DNA from: a virus | IMG/VR virus record: IMGVR_UViG_3300045988_173832 | DNA: 64,000 nt | Strand: one strand, 5' to 3' | Part shown: positions 1 through 64,000 of the stretch, piece by piece | How the letters are laid out: each line of letters starts with the position of its first letter | Numbering within the stretch: position 1 is the first letter of the stretch | The notes under the pieces: generated by a model | What the model saw: only the letters and a program-made list of their open reading frames with translations | Database searches by the model: none | Told to the model about the DNA's origin: nothing | Program-made: the position numbers and the translations under genes

Positions 1-420
1 CAGGAACAGTGGAGGTCTGTGATCGAACAGATGTACAGGGAGTATGCAGATTGTACACCGAGATTTAGTAGACATCTTAACTTTGTTACAGGCGATAAGT
101 TTGATAATGCTGGTCATCTCGATTTTCATCATAGACGCATGATACTCGATATGTTTATTGTATTTGGGTATCATGAAAAACTATTTTCTTGGAACAATCC
201 TACACACTTTATGCTGCGTGTGTGTGATAACTGCGTAGTGTATCGTGATTGGATGGTTTAATAAACTAGGCGTGTGCAGCCGTTTAGTAGTATGTCATAA
301 TAATCTTTAGAAGGAGGCTGTCCCACCCTCCTTCCAACAGTAGGATCCTTCAGATCCTTCAACGCTCTATAGTAATGCACAGATATGACCAGCTACTGTC
401 TATTGTGAAAGGAGTACTTT

Positions 421-1275
421 ATGTACAATTACAGCAATTTGGTACACACTGTTGTAGCTAGTGGTGAAAGATATGCCGCTAGAGTACACAAACAGACTAT
501 GCCATTTATGGTTCTGAGGCGTTTGGCAGCGGAGGATAATATGAACTCCACATTTAAGAGTGCAAATATCTCTGCAGCTAGAGCTGTGGAGTACACTTTA
601 CGTGGTTTACGTGATACACTGACCGCTCGTAAGGAAGATAAGCCTAAGCTTATGCGCATTTGGGACAGTGGATTCTTGGCTTTGACAGAGATCCTGCGCA
701 TTTATGGTGTGAAGATTGTAGAAGGTAGTCATTTTGCGGCAACACTGTATAAGACGCTTAAGTCAATTGATTACGATGTCTTAACAGAGAGCTTCTGCAG
801 GGCGAATAACTCAAAGCACATGACAGTTAGGATGTTTAGTCATGCTCTTGCATACCCTGCAATGTATACATCTGCAAATATTTGTCAGCGTACAATAGCT
901 CGTATGCAGCGGCTGCATACCAGATATGGTATCAATATTGAGATGAGTGATTTTTCTGACGAGCAGCGTATTGATATTGTTGATCTGACAAAGACGATTA
1001 TTGACAGTGCAGAGGTATCTGGCTACTATTACACATTTAGATACTTTGCTGCTTTCGCTCCGAGATTTAAGCTCTCTGATGAGTTAGTAAAGAGCATCAC
1101 AAACTGCCTTGATCACGAGAATTATAATAAGAATGTGCTCTTACAGGTTTATTGGGAGCTCAGGAAGTTAAACGCACAGGGTGAGTTGCCTGAACAGCAG
1201 GGTATCATCTACTTATTTGACTTGTATGGTGGACCTTATTTCAATGCCGGGTACACTAATGTCTTCGGACGTTAA
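421..1275 (+). CDS. hypothetical protein (284 aa)
   Basis: Long ORF in track; ATG preceded by GAAAGGAG RBS; no recognisable motif. Confidence 0.5.
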   Translation: MYNYSNLVHTVVASGERYAARVHKQTMPFMVLRRLAAEDNMNSTFKSANISAARAVEYTLRGLRDTLTARKEDKPKLMRIWDSGFLALTEILRIYGVKIVEGSHFAATLYKTLKSIDYDVLTESFCRANNSKHMTVRMFSHALAYPAMYTSANICQRTIARMQRLHTRYGINIEMSDFSDEQRIDIVDLTKTIIDSAEVSGYYYTFRYFAAFAPRFKLSDELVKSITNCLDHENYNKNVLLQVYWELRKLNAQGELPEQQGIIYLFDLYGGPYFNAGYTNVFGR

Positions 1276-61900: not shown

Positions 61901-64000
61901 ATCTTAATCAGACATTTCAAACATCACTACAATATAGTTTTTCGCGGTATCTACAGGATTACAAGAGTACAGCAACACTTCCACCATTTGCAAACGAATA
62001 CGCACTGCAGGTTCAATCTTTAGCAGAGTGGAAGACTAAGAATCCTGCAGTATCAAAACTGCTACAAAGCAAACAAGCTTCTCTCGTGTATGAGTATTTA
62101 GCAGACGATACAATAATTCTATATCCATTTGGATGGGATGATTATTATTATGATCTACACTTGTATGCCGGAGCAGGGGATACAATATACCAACATTCAG
62201 CAAGTGGAGAGGCAAATACAGAGCAGATAAATGTAGCTAGAACTAAGACATCTGTTAATTTAATTCAGACACTATTAGCTCTGCAGAAGAATACAGATTA
62301 TCAGCACAATAATCTTAAAACAACATATACTCAGCGCATAGATGAAAATCATGTAACTAGGGAGGAATTGATGGATAAGGCAAATCAGTTCTTTGACAGT
62401 CCAGTCTCAGGGCTAAGCTACATCTTAACAGGATTCCTTTATCAGATTCATGAATCTGTAGCAACTGGAGATTTTGGTAGCATATTCAACATTAGCTATT
62501 TAACAGAAACTGATGCATATAAGTGGATAATGGATAGATACATTGCATTAGTTACAATAGCTATTGCGATTGTATTATTCCTTAAGCTTATTCAATTCGC
62601 AATGAATAAGAGTAAGGATTTTGCGCACATTGGACGTTCTATTTTAGGTATCTTAGCAATGTGTATGGTCCCTGTAGTAGTCTTTAACAGTTTTGTATGG
62701 GCATTTGATGTCTCGTCAGATTGGGCGATGAAGAGTACATCAGATAAGATACTTCTTGCACAAATAAACAGATACTGTTCAGATGCAAATAATGATGGTA
62801 ATGTGACTGCAGAAATTACGGCTTTTAAACAGCAATTTAGCAGTGTGAAAGGCACATATGATTGTCTGCAGTTCGAGCAGATGACAAATTATTCACTTGG
62901 CTCCGGTCCAGTATATTCAGTAGTGCCTATTTCGGACATGATTGCAAATCTACAATATTCAACATCATATGACACATGGTACTCTAATAAATCATTTATA
63001 CCAGTCCATCAAGACTTATATAAGGATTCTTATTTCTACTTCTTTTATGACTATATTAAGCAAGAATTCTTAAAGTATTCAGCAGAGCACGATGACGGTA
63101 GTTCGGAAGTAAAACAAGCAGGCGAAAGCTTTGAAACTAATCGCAAAAGCTTAAAAGCAGGCTCTGCTGATGATATCGCAAAGGATATTAATGCAGCAGA
63201 AAATCTGTTCAGAACATCACGCGGCAGTTTCAGACGTATGCTTCTTGACACAGACTTTGTATATAAAAACTCTGTGCATGAAACACAAGAAGCAAGATAT
63301 GGTGGACCTCATGCAACTGATTTAGCAGGTATGTACATGATTTTCGATGCGTCTGCAGCAGGACAAGTTACTAAGACCCTACAAGACACAGTGTACTTTA
63401 GAGCATATACAGATGCAGATGCAATGAAGGTATCTAATGAAGGAATGATATCTGAAACATGGCTGAATCAGAATGCGATTAGTGATTATGTAGAAAAACA
63501 GATTTCTCTAGGCAAAGGTATTCGTGGTGACCCTGGAAAAGGTTCATATGCAATCTATACTTCAGGACTTGACCCATATGAAGGAACTTTGAATACAAAT
63601 GCTTATTTAACAGATGCAACAAATACAGCTACAGCACCTATTATAACACCACTCGAACAGGCGCTTATCGATGTTACAGAAAAGACATACAATCAGACAA
63701 TGACAGCTCTTAACTATCTTCCTGGACAGATGCATGATGAAGCAGCAATTGTGCTAATGGCTTATATTGCCACATTTAATCTCAATCAGGCGATGGGTTA
63801 TGAACCTCAAGCACCTTTAACACAGTCTGTTACTCTGGATGATGTTGTTTCTACAGCATTCCTAACAGACCTTGACATGATAGGCACAGAGACGAATACT
63901 CTATATGCTATGATAGCTCAAGGTGATAGTGTAGGTAAGGCAGCAATAGTTGTTATACTTGAAATAATCATTTGCTTATCATCAATATTCAGAGTACTAA
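58981..64000 (+). CDS. very large exported/membrane protein (more than 1,670 codons, partial: continues beyond window); signal peptide, internal TM cluster around 62.5 kb
   Basis: Frame 1 open from ATG 58981 to the window end (spot-checked at 60001, 61981, 63001, 63961); not in ORF track because no stop is reached. Confidence 0.5.
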   Translation, partial: MKKVIATIMAAAVMLSQLSLLVKATDGNPLAVSNRVTADINELRQREEDIKNQRAAQKAASRALINYGKTTGKTNDLSFYINRKNLTKREFEAFKWSFIFSQFAHPLEDSLLNVFDQDFFQELSKADLDIDSVRTTILNSGLVADSDDIKASSMDTDLQAMMLQDVNFNELAEVIKSNYAIYPLVDSNGTPASLDSFISGDLGLYEPFFIYDTHGTADSVNELNALLYSKDKLTDLDKNYGDKWTLTGFTTDDSAEPYKVPVLFYDSNTFLAMQMAMTIYMTNNDYSSLTEAVAFLGAQTLAVDSYGNICLQKQSGDAVIFIPNFYNTVLTSVLCEIDGGEKTKQALRETMDLFNVWFVALYSKNTRTRTTIYPAVYTTHVNGSTSKIVNPDTGEIEEKATEVLADHYAQLIGGTSHSLSRKFLLVENSIISPGEQQTQAVVDSAIDNKDDETALAFSHAAKMIAEKTLSEYIDSWFPGNMSSRPKSDASNVGTLVSPYNTHASAFMPFTANDSSKPTYFENKYPLAQAQVAFKEKDVISSDAASATNFSRFAAILENAKWKYILSPRRGSYSTHSIQSSMHAAYNDSSNMMAINPTVSLMTSLPAEQLIPDLRFVSAKKSEQSTGARTVIFLPKEILDLGQTMSAYTLSDEKGMFLSQYEVYFSGDIERFREYMLGTYNQVLGTDSGRFLTVDYDSGVLKVKSLATFNRTYLTEDTEFTLSWSTNKYTSTDFFDYVHYSIKDEYKSGHYNEGARYVYEVLKEKKDEDGNTYYENYDPTKYTVSSDEKSGDKYSFIAAYYYDSDIIDPGISTGSCSEIPTPDYKLKNDSADAKMKAGAQALWAAGAAIAGMSKDAEYGSTEGFQKLLADVCASCGFNTDEFYYMLVNIYRFNGKDNGTFGINSVYFYDEYTCLLRNGATAFSDIDCENSDDFVQTTYYWDRYYLTKQQLSQDVSDYVNKQYESIDSLVSDYENYLNQTFQTSLQYSFSRYLQDYKSTATLPPFANEYALQVQSLAEWKTKNPAVSKLLQSKQASLVYEYLADDTIILYPFGWDDYYYDLHLYAGAGDTIYQHSASGEANTEQINVARTKTSVNLIQTLLALQKNTDYQHNNLKTTYTQRIDENHVTREELMDKANQFFDSPVSGLSYILTGFLYQIHESVATGDFGSIFNISYLTETDAYKWIMDRYIALVTIAIAIVLFLKLIQFAMNKSKDFAHIGRSILGILAMCMVPVVVFNSFVWAFDVSSDWAMKSTSDKILLAQINRYCSDANNDGNVTAEITAFKQQFSSVKGTYDCLQFEQMTNYSLGSGPVYSVVPISDMIANLQYSTSYDTWYSNKSFIPVHQDLYKDSYFYFFYDYIKQEFLKYSAEHDDGSSEVKQAGESFETNRKSLKAGSADDIAKDINAAENLFRTSRGSFRRMLLDTDFVYKNSVHETQEARYGGPHATDLAGMYMIFDASAAGQVTKTLQDTVYFRAYTDADAMKVSNEGMISETWLNQNAISDYVEKQISLGKGIRGDPGKGSYAIYTSGLDPYEGTLNTNAYLTDATNTATAPIITPLEQALIDVTEKTYNQTMTALNYLPGQMHDEAAIVLMAYIATFNLNQAMGYEPQAPLTQSVTLDDVVSTAFLTDLDMIGTETNTLYAMIAQGDSVGKAAIVVILEIIICLSSIFRVL

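Follow-up and report, generated by a model that had tools for sequence, protein, structure and literature searches.

Few sequence signals organise whole replicons; Chi sites and FtsK-orienting polar sequences (KOPS) belong to these, and the well-studied polar words are, to our knowledge, all located on bacterial chromosomes and much sparser than the word described here. In E. coli, Chi occurs about once per 5 kb, and the criteria for Chi prediction include a bias towards core over acquired DNA (PMC8022716). The KOPS of Lactococcus is the 7-mer GAAGAAG with one copy per 2.1 kb; within the Streptococcaceae the guide motifs vary (GAAGAAG, GCAGATG, GAAGCAG, GTAGAAG), and the strand skews of KOPS and of the comparable SpoIIIE recognition sequences (SRS) range from 0.79 to 0.91 (PMC3384302). 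Here we analyse a 64,000-nt stretch of DNA (the window, positions 1-64,000) from the IMG/VR virus record IMGVR_UViG_3300045988_173832, which belongs to a large element of the human gut that is uncharacterised and very prevalent. This mobile-type element, present in hundreds of human-gut metagenomes, carries the 9-mer CTTTAGCAG and its 8-nt core TTTAGCAG as a far denser, near-perfectly polar word that occurs in dialects.

Exact counting over the whole window, with the strand as presented taken as the plus strand, found 54 copies of CTTTAGCAG on the plus and one on the minus strand, and 80:2 copies of TTTAGCAG (skew 0.975). The ratio was 98:5 for TTAGCAG and 120:8 for the degenerate form TTTA[GA][CT]AG. 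The density amounts to one 9-mer per 1.19 kb and one 8-mer per 0.8 kb, and the two words are the most frequent 9-mer and 8-mer of the window. Markov models of orders 0-3 predict only 0.2-1.5 copies of CTTTAGCAG (1.45 at order 3) and 1.3-6.4 copies of TTTAGCAG (6.4 at order 3). A first-pass annotation of this DNA had reported the 9-mer and proposed an order-3 Markov model with counts on both strands as a check; the excess lies far above threefold (54 vs. 1.45), the strands are unequal (80:2), and all 54 reported starts were reproduced with none missing and none extra. The cores without a preceding C do recur as reported, but number 26 instead of about 22, and the supposedly single reverse copy at 44460 is one of two reverse 8-mers (23591 and 44460), the sole reverse 9-mer being the one at 23591. 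The observation is solid and reproducible over many independent assemblies. The exact 9-mers CTTTAGCAG are located as follows (SD, Shine-Dalgarno sequence; RT, reverse transcriptase):

1600..1608, plus strand, intergenic
2117..2125, plus strand, Leu-Ala frame
3457..3465, plus strand, gene end, just upstream of SD
8775..8783, plus strand, Leu-Ala frame
9198..9206, plus strand, Leu-Ala frame
10315..10323, plus strand, Leu-Ala frame
10869..10877, plus strand, Phe-Ser frame
11211..11219, plus strand, Leu-Ala frame
12183..12191, plus strand, intergenic, abuts GGAGG
13239..13247, plus strand, Phe-Ser frame
18073..18081, plus strand, Leu-Ala frame
19458..19466, plus strand, Leu-Ala frame
21316..21324, plus strand, intergenic
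22804..22812, plus strand, Leu-Ala frame
26729..26737, plus strand, Leu-Ala frame
27513..27521, plus strand, Leu-Ala frame
27771..27779, plus strand, Leu-Ala frame
28263..28271, plus strand, Leu-Ala frame
28726..28734, plus strand, Leu-Ala frame
29811..29819, plus strand, Leu-Ala frame
30115..30123, plus strand, gene end, abuts GGAGG
32461..32469, plus strand, Leu-Ala frame, flotillin gene
32977..32985, plus strand, intergenic or Phe-Ser open frame
33678..33686, plus strand, Leu-Ala frame
34187..34195, plus strand, Leu-Ala frame
34673..34681, plus strand, Leu-Ala frame
35909..35917, plus strand, Leu-Ala frame
36780..36788, plus strand, Leu-Ala frame, RT gene
37035..37043, plus strand, Leu-Ala frame, RT gene
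37110..37118, plus strand, Leu-Ala frame, RT gene
37464..37472, plus strand, Leu-Ala frame, RT gene
38328..38336, plus strand, Leu-Ala frame
38850..38858, plus strand, Leu-Ala frame
40440..40448, plus strand, Leu-Ala frame
40836..40844, plus strand, intergenic
41484..41492, plus strand, Phe-Ser frame
41783..41791, plus strand, Leu-Ala frame
42325..42333, plus strand, Leu-Ala frame
43044..43052, plus strand, Phe-Ser frame
43582..43590, plus strand, Leu-Ala frame
44789..44797, plus strand, Leu-Ala frame
45045..45053, plus strand, intergenic, just upstream of SD
50408..50416, plus strand, Leu-Ala frame
51815..51823, plus strand, Leu-Ala frame
53596..53604, plus strand, Leu-Ala frame
54966..54974, plus strand, Leu-Ala frame
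55907..55915, plus strand, Leu-Ala frame
57395..57403, plus strand, Leu-Ala frame
57972..57980, plus strand, Leu-Ala frame
58098..58106, plus strand, Leu-Ala frame
59066..59074, plus strand, Leu-Ala frame
59879..59887, plus strand, Leu-Ala frame
60624..60632, plus strand, Phe-Ser frame
62018..62026, plus strand, Leu-Ala frame

The cores TTTAGCAG without the leading C and the two reverse copies are:

1294..1301, plus strand, A before the core, intergenic
5231..5238, plus strand, T before the core, intergenic
7601..7608, plus strand, Leu-Ala frame
20997..21004, plus strand, Leu-Ala frame
24912..24919, plus strand, Leu-Ala frame
27885..27892, plus strand, its TAG is the stop codon of the open reading frame (ORF) 27305-27889
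29248..29255, plus strand, Leu-Ala frame
30995..31002, plus strand, Leu-Ala frame
36592..36599, plus strand, Leu-Ala frame
39606..39613, plus strand, Phe-Ser frame
40055..40062, plus strand, Leu-Ala frame
43230..43237, plus strand, Leu-Ala frame
46369..46376, plus strand, Leu-Ala frame
48203..48210, plus strand, Leu-Ala frame, CpaF-like ATPase gene, position conserved in relatives L007 and L008
48940..48947, plus strand, Leu-Ala frame
50196..50203, plus strand, Leu-Ala frame
51200..51207, plus strand, Leu-Ala frame
51918..51925, plus strand, Leu-Ala frame
52717..52724, plus strand, intergenic, between SD and ATG of 52725
55105..55112, plus strand, Leu-Ala frame
56486..56493, plus strand, Leu-Ala frame
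56777..56784, plus strand, Leu-Ala frame
57615..57622, plus strand, Leu-Ala frame
62097..62104, plus strand, Leu-Ala frame
62836..62843, plus strand, Phe-Ser frame
63321..63328, plus strand, Leu-Ala frame; a small ORF ends at 63325 on the word's TAG
23591..23599, minus strand, sole reverse 9-mer, reads CTGCTAAAG on the plus strand
44460..44467, minus strand, second reverse 8-mer, reads CTGCTAAA on the plus strand

In the reverse orientation the word occurs at expectation (two copies of TTTAGCAG vs. 0.7, and eight of the degenerate word vs. 5.7). Since the forward word is gained and the reverse word is not depleted, the strand asymmetry reflects the gain of one orientation and not the loss of the other. 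The tolerated variation leads to the word definition [C>>n]TTTA[G>A][C>T>A]AG. Its commonest variant is CTTTAACAG (14:2), which exceeds CTTTAGTAG; the latter does recur as described before, with seven copies (3268, 8419, 12608, 12680, 17809, 26615, and 32710), but several of the earlier coordinates were off by 4-21 nt. The C at position -1 is the only informative flanking position, and no information was found outside the word. The copies of TTTAGCAG have a mean spacing of 785 nt with a near-exponential distribution (coefficient of variation 0.87, largest gap 4,834 nt), and those of TTTA[GA][CT]AG are spaced in a Poisson-like manner with a mean of 533 nt. Exponential spacing and uninformative flanks thus rule out both a periodic arrangement and a hidden longer repeat or structured element of which the word would be a piece. 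The proposed match to the size of Okazaki fragments accordingly holds for the average, but not in the sense of regular spacing, as the distances are random.

Selection acts on the nucleic acid, and codons and amino acids are shifted by it. Although 75% of the copies fall in one frame (xxT-TTA-GCA-G, encoding Leu-Ala), where 60 words are observed vs. 7.1 expected (about 9-fold), the Phe-Ser frame (TTT-AGC-AG) holds eight vs. 0.57 (about 14-fold) and the 6.6 kb of intergenic DNA 11 vs. 0.13 (about 80-fold), all in the same orientation (11:0). Because the word is enriched in two frames and most strongly in intergenic DNA, selection must concern the nucleic acid and not the protein, in agreement with the first-pass annotation, whose frame classes were also recovered when we classified the copies. 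Within-gene shuffling of synonymous codons, which preserves the proteins and the codon usage of each gene, yielded 6.9 +/- 2.5 copies of TTTAGCAG in genes vs. 61 observed. Leu-Ala dipeptides are themselves 1.5-fold in excess in the window proteins (164 vs. 107 expected), and TTAGCA encodes 47% of them vs. 16% expected from codon usage, TTA and GCA being favoured codons in the window. Synonymous shuffling and the enrichment in each class therefore led us to reject an artefact of peptide or codon-pair preference.

The distribution over genes follows chance: 37 of 82 genes lack any word (41 by Poisson), the counts per gene fit a Poisson distribution, and positions inside genes are nearly uniform. 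Among the window genes no clustering upstream of gene starts was found beyond the higher intergenic density, which makes a promoter for the element's sigma factor unlikely. The earlier statement that the word never falls in the frame reading TAG is near-trivial; two words supply an ordinary stop codon (ORF 27305-27889 and the small ORF with its end at 63325). Of 83 genes, 11 have TAG as their normal stop, and the ORFs are continuous under code 11; with only these two uses of the word's own TAG as stop, we rejected TAG recoding as well as +1 frameshift sites of the prfB-like CUU-UAG type.

A search of related contigs, which the first-pass annotation had suggested as a check, recovered the same skewed word in close relatives and dialect words in further ones. 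Relatedness is given by the CpaF-like ATPase of a Tad-type pilus cluster unless stated otherwise (ratios are plus:minus):

L007, ATPase 84% identical to that of the window, TTTAGCAG 28:1 per ~21 kb
L008, ATPase 68% identical to that of the window, TTTAGCAG 23:0 per ~21 kb
L037 and L038, both from the element itself, upstream part, TTTAGCAG 24:0 and 26:0
L010, second clade, TTTAGCCAG 16:0
L009, second clade, ATPase 70% identical to that of L010, TCTAGC 46:2
L115, second clade, ATPase 80% identical to that of L010, weak CTTTA[AG]C 21:4
L116, ATPase 37% identical to that of the window, no word
L030, related element via an RT homologue, CTTTAG 52:9
L030, extended words CTTTAGAT 16:0, CTTTAGTT 12:0, and CTTTAGGT 11:0

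In every locus of the lineage the top-scoring 8-mer is this word. The five word-bearing lineages have a core T(T/C)TAG in common and differ in its 3' extension, and words differ even between elements with ATPases of 70-80% identity. In L030, the fixed bases of CTTTAG[AGT]T include a synonymous third position, while the amino acid following Leu varies. The comparison of 94%-identical variants is uninformative as to selection on single sites (14 of 17 kept vs. a null of 0.71). At moderate divergence, however, purifying selection on individual sites is evident, with 8 of 19 kept at 68% DNA identity vs. 7.3% for arbitrary 8-mers (P = 3e-5). At 56% identity the word positions are fully turned over and the density is unchanged. 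In the word-less L116, a Type I restriction-modification methylase and specificity subunit (L116:1974-4849) adjoin the Tad cluster.

Word-free stretches coincide with acquired-looking or accessory DNA. Those of the window, and the genes for transfer-messenger RNA (tmRNA) in the longest of them, are:

13318..18073, word-free island, no TTTAGCAG in 4.8 kb, holds two tmRNA genes
5239..7600, word-free island, holds an accessory gene for an HK97-type major head protein (6057-7253)
14155-14536 and 16110-16497, same strand, tmRNA genes, full-length, 1.6 kb apart, 72% identical

Upstream of the window, at about -9.4 to -5 kb (L038:10001-14400), a 6-kb word-free block consists of the genes for dCMP deaminase, MatE, a 401-aa protein (p401), and nucleoside deoxyribosyltransferase (NDT). 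The same four genes occur rearranged, with 57-78% amino-acid identity, in the word-free, mixed-strand contigs L040, L043, and L044 of 41% GC, and the block may be a mobile nucleotide-metabolism module. The IS110 copy in the element is also word-free. An upstream chemoreceptor gene of ordinary bacterial type contains four copies, and the pattern as a whole would look like amelioration towards an element-specific signal. Indirectly, the absence of the word from such islands speaks against the usual donors of DNA, the host included, being word-rich. A 26-kb bacterial-looking contig with a 90%-identical IS110, whose relation to the host is uncertain, has one word in 20 kb, and no relative was found among the matches listed in GTDB genome scans. 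The word is no general property of gut DNA, since none of about 35 control loci, several of them equally co-oriented, has a comparable word; their skewed words are low-complexity and purine-rich, with exceptionality scores of 5-15 vs. 20-63 in the lineage loci. Islands, controls, and the dialects found despite 70-80% ATPase identity speak for a word specific to the element lineage. Odd skewed words were also seen in the unrelated low-GC metagenome loci L111, L093, and L097 (TCACTA 36:1, CTTTATCA 13:0, and ATATTTG 20:1).

Two complete tmRNAs side by side are unusual on a mobile-type element. Both tags end in ...EAVAA, and the two tmRNAs read CTGTAGCAG and CTGTAGCTG. The ssrA gene of E. coli encodes ...ALAA* with GCT-TTA-GCA-GCT, which contains the word; as both local tmRNA genes are situated in a word-free island, we treated a link between word and tmRNA as coincidence.

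All ORFs of the window are on the plus strand, so that the co-orientation of word and genes noted before is strict, and GC and AT skew are positive throughout. Including 20 kb upstream taken from other assemblies of the element, 89 kb (about 29% of the replicon) were sampled with every gene on one strand, and every locus obtained for the family is fully co-oriented. Identical copies of the CpaF-like protein are encoded on 245 contigs from 509 data blocks, for the most part of human-gut origin. Contigs of 303,476, 307,291, 308,705, 309,885, and 310,444 bp recur (behind L028, L038, L004, and L002), and two of them have a common break point (window -98/-95 kb and +211/+215 kb) that is spanned by a third contig; we therefore infer that the replicon is about 309 kb in size and circular or permuted. 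Contigs of 0.64, 1.34, 3.67, and 3.82 Mb also encode exactly this CpaF-like protein and could represent integration or misassembly. No similar sequence was present in INPHARED or PLSDB by megablast, where protein-level matches were only distant, and no similar element was found in IMG/VR. An affiliation with the "Inocle" elements was rejected, as these are oral and have 24-32% GC. The element looks like a huge-phage-like replicon or a megaplasmid.

About three quarters of the window proteins have no match in Pfam, NCBIfam, or PHROG. The Tad-type cluster (45464-58948), which comprises a CpaE/ParA-like protein, the CpaF-like ATPase, two TadB/C-like proteins, and a small pilin of ~55-73 aa, forms a syntenic backbone common to all relatives (L007-L010, L115, L116), followed by about eight conserved genes for unknown proteins and one for a protein of >1,675 aa. 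Chemotaxis and motility fragments (MCP, CheX/CheC, PilZ, FliG_C) are dispersed in the family. Further window genes encode a flotillin, a sigma-70-family protein, PARG, a DHH phosphoesterase, GNAT, ASCH/DUF3850 and DUF488 proteins, and a Big_2 protein, in addition to the two tmRNAs and an RT of the UG27 type. The upstream 20 kb carry a second UG27 RT, CheX/CheC, DUF1848, the dCMP deaminase, MatE, NDT, the chemoreceptor, two radical-SAM proteins, and a methyltransferase, all on the plus strand. The two UG27-type RTs (window 36335-37567 and L028:8208-9416, the latter ~1.4 kb upstream of the window start; PADLOC RT_UG27, 310 and 288 bits) are 53% identical paralogues. Such RTs are typical of gut phages (PMC9226505; bioRxiv 10.64898/2026.09.22.753630) and, according to a 2026 preprint, make short cDNA hairpins from arrays of non-coding RNA (bioRxiv 10.64898/2026.09.22.753630). 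The protein encoded at 3488-4222 consists of three tandem DUF4379 treble-clef zinc-finger repeats of ~80 aa; it weakly matches the sequence of mS66, a mitoribosomal protein of kinetoplastids, and is conceivable as a candidate nucleic-acid reader of the 9-nt word. The HK97-type head protein is the only capsid-like gene product among the sampled genes (phrog_422, E 5e-63; ~35% identity to capsids of small Firmicutes siphophages). Together with its 142-aa neighbour (window 5598-7253) it is missing in the variant L029, and it is cut to 130-285 aa in many cluster members. Being absent or truncated in variants and free of the word, the head gene looks like an accessory, decaying insertion rather than a capsid gene that belongs to the element.

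The data require a directional process that gains from a dense, short, one-strand word and is indifferent to the other orientation. We consider the word probably to be a polar signal at the DNA level, whose reader is an enzyme tracking along the strand of the word, because polar DNA words have precedent in Chi and KOPS and dense intragenic RNA words do not. Within that class we tentatively favour priming, for which the direction of replication, the reading enzyme, and the mechanism are all inferred: the words might be initiation sites for lagging-strand primer synthesis by an element-specific priming system. Selection holds the word at about one copy per 0.5-0.8 kb on the G-rich, gene-sense strand, which, if forks move with the genes, would be the lagging-strand template. 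The word strand is that of positive GC and AT skew with all genes co-directed, and in Firmicutes the positive-skew strand has the sequence of the leading strand and is hence the template of the lagging strand. The primer might be made by a primase of the element's own, or by the host primase re-tuned by a helicase. DnaG primases of Firmicutes scan in the 3' to 5' direction and prefer 5'-CTA and 5'-TTA for initiation, doing best when a pyrimidine precedes the trinucleotide; primase specificity can be changed by the helicase, and initiation trinucleotides are strand-biased (PMC5204125). At the level of sequence, all dialects contain TTA or CTA after a pyrimidine. The part conserved across lineages, a pyrimidine plus T(T/C)TA, would thus be the initiating, copied part, from which a primer would start pppA-A/G-A, and the 3' extension that varies between lineages (GCAG, GCCAG, GC) would serve as a "cryptic" recognition element, left uncopied, which a primase scanning 3' to 5' would meet first. 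The primase sites of phage T7 and Twinkle have cryptic 3' recognition bases that are not copied (PMC5737085). The density fits what Okazaki fragments of 1-2 kb need if sites are used stochastically, selection on sites and the over-use of Leu-Ala and TTAGCA fit an essential, density-dependent function, and a neutral reverse orientation is what an irrelevant other strand would produce.

Several points weigh against this priming function. In the 89 kb sampled (~29% of the replicon), no primase, helicase, or other replication gene was found. We know of no primase that needs more than 3-5 template bases and of no genome enriched for long primase words, which makes for a low prior. As all genes are located on one strand, GC skew is confounded with transcription, and replication- and transcription-linked readings are inseparable here. 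The agreement between the core and CTA/TTA was drawn post hoc and concerns 3-4 bases only, and word-free stretches of 5-6 kb are tolerated. Should the host chromosome carry the word genome-wide, a Chi- or KOPS-type signal of the host would become likelier.

A function resembling Chi has the stronger precedent, and all statistical criteria fit it, although we regard it as somewhat unlikely. Here, a helicase-nuclease (host AddAB/RecBCD or an element-encoded enzyme) would read the word in unwound single-stranded DNA, and recognition would attenuate degradation and load RecA, protecting forks or linear products and marking the DNA as "self." The word is the most over-represented oligomer of its length, is polar with respect to the presumed leading strand, and is scarcer where DNA was acquired recently; Chi differs between lineages (AGCGG, GAAGCGG, GCGCGTG, GCTGGTGG), the 3' half AGCAG is one base from the Bacillus subtilis Chi AGCGG, and the neutral reverse orientation is what Chi predicts. 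However, one copy per 0.5-0.8 kb, 9-80-fold enrichment, and 98% polarity are far above any known Chi, and the dialects conserve the 5' half T(T/C)TAG and not the Chi-like 3' half. A host-specified word also predicts copies in either orientation in host-captured DNA, whereas the islands carry none and the bacterial-looking IS110 contig, not proven to be host, has one word in 20 kb; moreover, no AddAB/RecBCD-like gene was seen in the sampled 89 kb.

Whether through priming or through such protection, the word may serve as a private, lineage-specific "self code," which seems a real possibility though short of an even chance: a polar 6-9-nt word per 0.5-0.8 kb in gut elements of ~0.2-0.3 Mb, read by a word-dependent primase or helicase-nuclease of the element. 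Replication or survival in the cell would then be limited to DNA of the right dialect, and dialect switches would accompany the diversification of the elements.

Alternatively, the word could act in the mRNA or, within the transcription bubble, in the non-template strand, either as reloading site for a processivity or antitermination factor of the element, similar to ops/RfaH, or as binding or processing site of an RNA-binding protein. Co-orientation with every gene would follow trivially, the 80 words amount to about one for each of the 82-83 genes, several intergenic copies are directly 5' of SD sequences, the E. coli ops element GGCGGTAGCGTG has TAGC in common with the word, and the element encodes a sigma factor and zinc-finger proteins of its own. 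Nevertheless, we consider this unlikely, as the 37 word-less genes, a number that Poisson predicts, speak against a requirement per gene, and positions within genes are near-uniform, with no clustering ahead of starts beyond the higher intergenic density; we know of no comparable RNA signal that is dense, intragenic, and positive, and no NusG/KOW-type gene was seen in the sampled 89 kb.

Less probable still is a polar guide in double-stranded DNA of the KOPS/SRS type that would orient a translocase such as FtsK, SpoIIIE, or TraB for segregation, transfer, or packaging. Polar 7-8-mers that co-evolve with their translocase are established (PMC3384302), and the skew of 0.975 and the existence of dialects conform to this. 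Known guides, however, are purine- or G-rich, whereas the word is pyrimidine-rich at its 5' end and 3-20 times denser; no FtsK-like gene turned up in the 29% of the replicon that was sampled, the sole motor ATPase being the CpaF/VirB11-like protein of the Tad-type cluster, and counter-selection of the reverse orientation was not detectable, at low statistical power.

Equally improbable, in our view, is a target of nicking or modification, where either a strand-specific nickase would introduce interruptions as in phage T5, or methylation, phosphorothioation, or hypermodification of one strand would label the DNA of the element. The word is strand-specific and sequence-defined, as are the nicks at consensus sites in phage T5 and some Pseudomonas phages, and the dCMP deaminase, NDT, two radical-SAM proteins, methyltransferase, and ASCH/DUF488 proteins are encoded nearby; such targets, however, are not known to be over-represented 10-80-fold, and no enzyme is linked to the word.

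We give very little credence to an uptake or transfer-specificity signal, comparable to the uptake signal sequences (USS) of Haemophilus and the DNA uptake sequences (DUS) of Neisseria, by which the Tad-type pilus would favour the uptake of the element's own DNA. Length, a density of about one per kb, the effect on codons and peptides, turnover, and dialects are alike, the window holds the conserved Tad/CpaF cluster, and Tad pili are needed for transformation of Micrococcus luteus. Yet known signals are about equally frequent on both strands, in contrast to 40:1 here and 11:0 in intergenic DNA, although the reverse complement would be just as encodable, as Ala-Lys or Leu-Leu-Lys; and ATPases of 70-80% identity accompany different or weak words.

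Finally, the notion that the word is not read at all and is a passive by-product of Leu-Ala codon-pair or dipeptide preference, of strand composition, or of Type III/ISP head-to-head site avoidance is scarcely credible and close to refuted already: it would accommodate the 75% of copies in one frame, the favoured codons TTA and GCA, and the shared strand of the genes, with the 36:0 bias of CAGCAG in T7 as precedent, but synonymous shuffling yields 7 copies vs. about 61-70 observed, the other frame and intergenic DNA are even more enriched, L030 keeps synonymous third positions while the amino acid after Leu varies, the forward word is gained with the reverse undepleted at expectation, and co-oriented control loci lack such a word.

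If the element's machinery reads the word, this would represent a new means of self/non-self DNA discrimination, or a replication control of their own, for mobile elements, and would provide a simple signature for recognising and classifying a large family of unannotated gut elements. A word specified by the host, on the other hand, would reveal a Chi- or KOPS-type signal of an important gut lineage and, with it, the host of the element.

None of the described systems accounts for the word. Chi resembles it in being the most over-represented oligomer of its length (5-8 nt), independent of frame, rarer in acquired DNA, and variable between lineages, and at Markov order 3 the excess here (54 vs. 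1.45 and 80 vs. 6.4) is of that nature. The present word is, however, about 6-10 times denser, far more enriched, about 98% polar, and located on a mobile-type element, and the half conserved between its dialects is not the Chi-like one. KOPS and SRS are likewise polar 7-8-mers with skews of 0.8-1.0, a range that includes the 0.975 found here relative to the gene and GC-skew strand, and have related yet distinct motifs in related Firmicutes (PMC3384302). They differ in being G- or purine-rich and in occurring once per 2-13 kb, 3-20 times more sparsely; neither CTTTAGCAG nor its T(T/C)TAG dialects have the form of the KOPS family (GGGNAGGG, GAGAAGGG, GAAGAAG), and in the 29% of the replicon sampled neither an FtsK-like gene nor a dif-like point of convergence was seen. 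The first-pass annotation knew of no described system with an 8-9-mer at such a density, which is overstated, as USS and DUS (9-12-mers) and HIP1 (an 8-mer) occur about once per kb. USS and DUS share with the word the reshaping of codons and peptides, turnover at kept density, and dialects; they are non-polar, chromosomal, and tied to competence pilins, whereas the word is polar at about 40:1 (80:2 overall, 11:0 in intergenic DNA). HIP1 (GCGATCGC) of cyanobacteria is found in coding and non-coding DNA and kept by selection or repair drive, with a debated function, but is palindromic and hence non-polar, chromosomal, and linked to cognate methyltransferases. CAGCAG in phage T7 (EcoP15I sites) is an asymmetric word entirely on one strand with co-oriented genes. 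It is, however, a 6-mer in modest excess that is explained by codon usage or head-to-head avoidance, whereas here the forward word is raised 9-80-fold and the reverse is undepleted, so that no loss of one orientation is seen. Primase sites, such as 5'-(G/T)(G/T)GTC with a cryptic 3' base for the T7 gp4 primase, function on the lagging-strand template only, with a YTA start in pyrimidine context, an uncopied 3' part, and spacing on the Okazaki scale, and YTA in pyrimidine context is contained in all dialects; known sites, however, are 3-5 nt long and not over-represented, and a need for 8-9 nt with lineage-specific extensions would be new. The word thus conforms to the statistical definitions of known polar architecture words and departs from KOPS in sequence and from USS in symmetry, and what is unusual is its density in combination with a polarity of about 98%, on a mobile-type element and with lineage-specific dialects.

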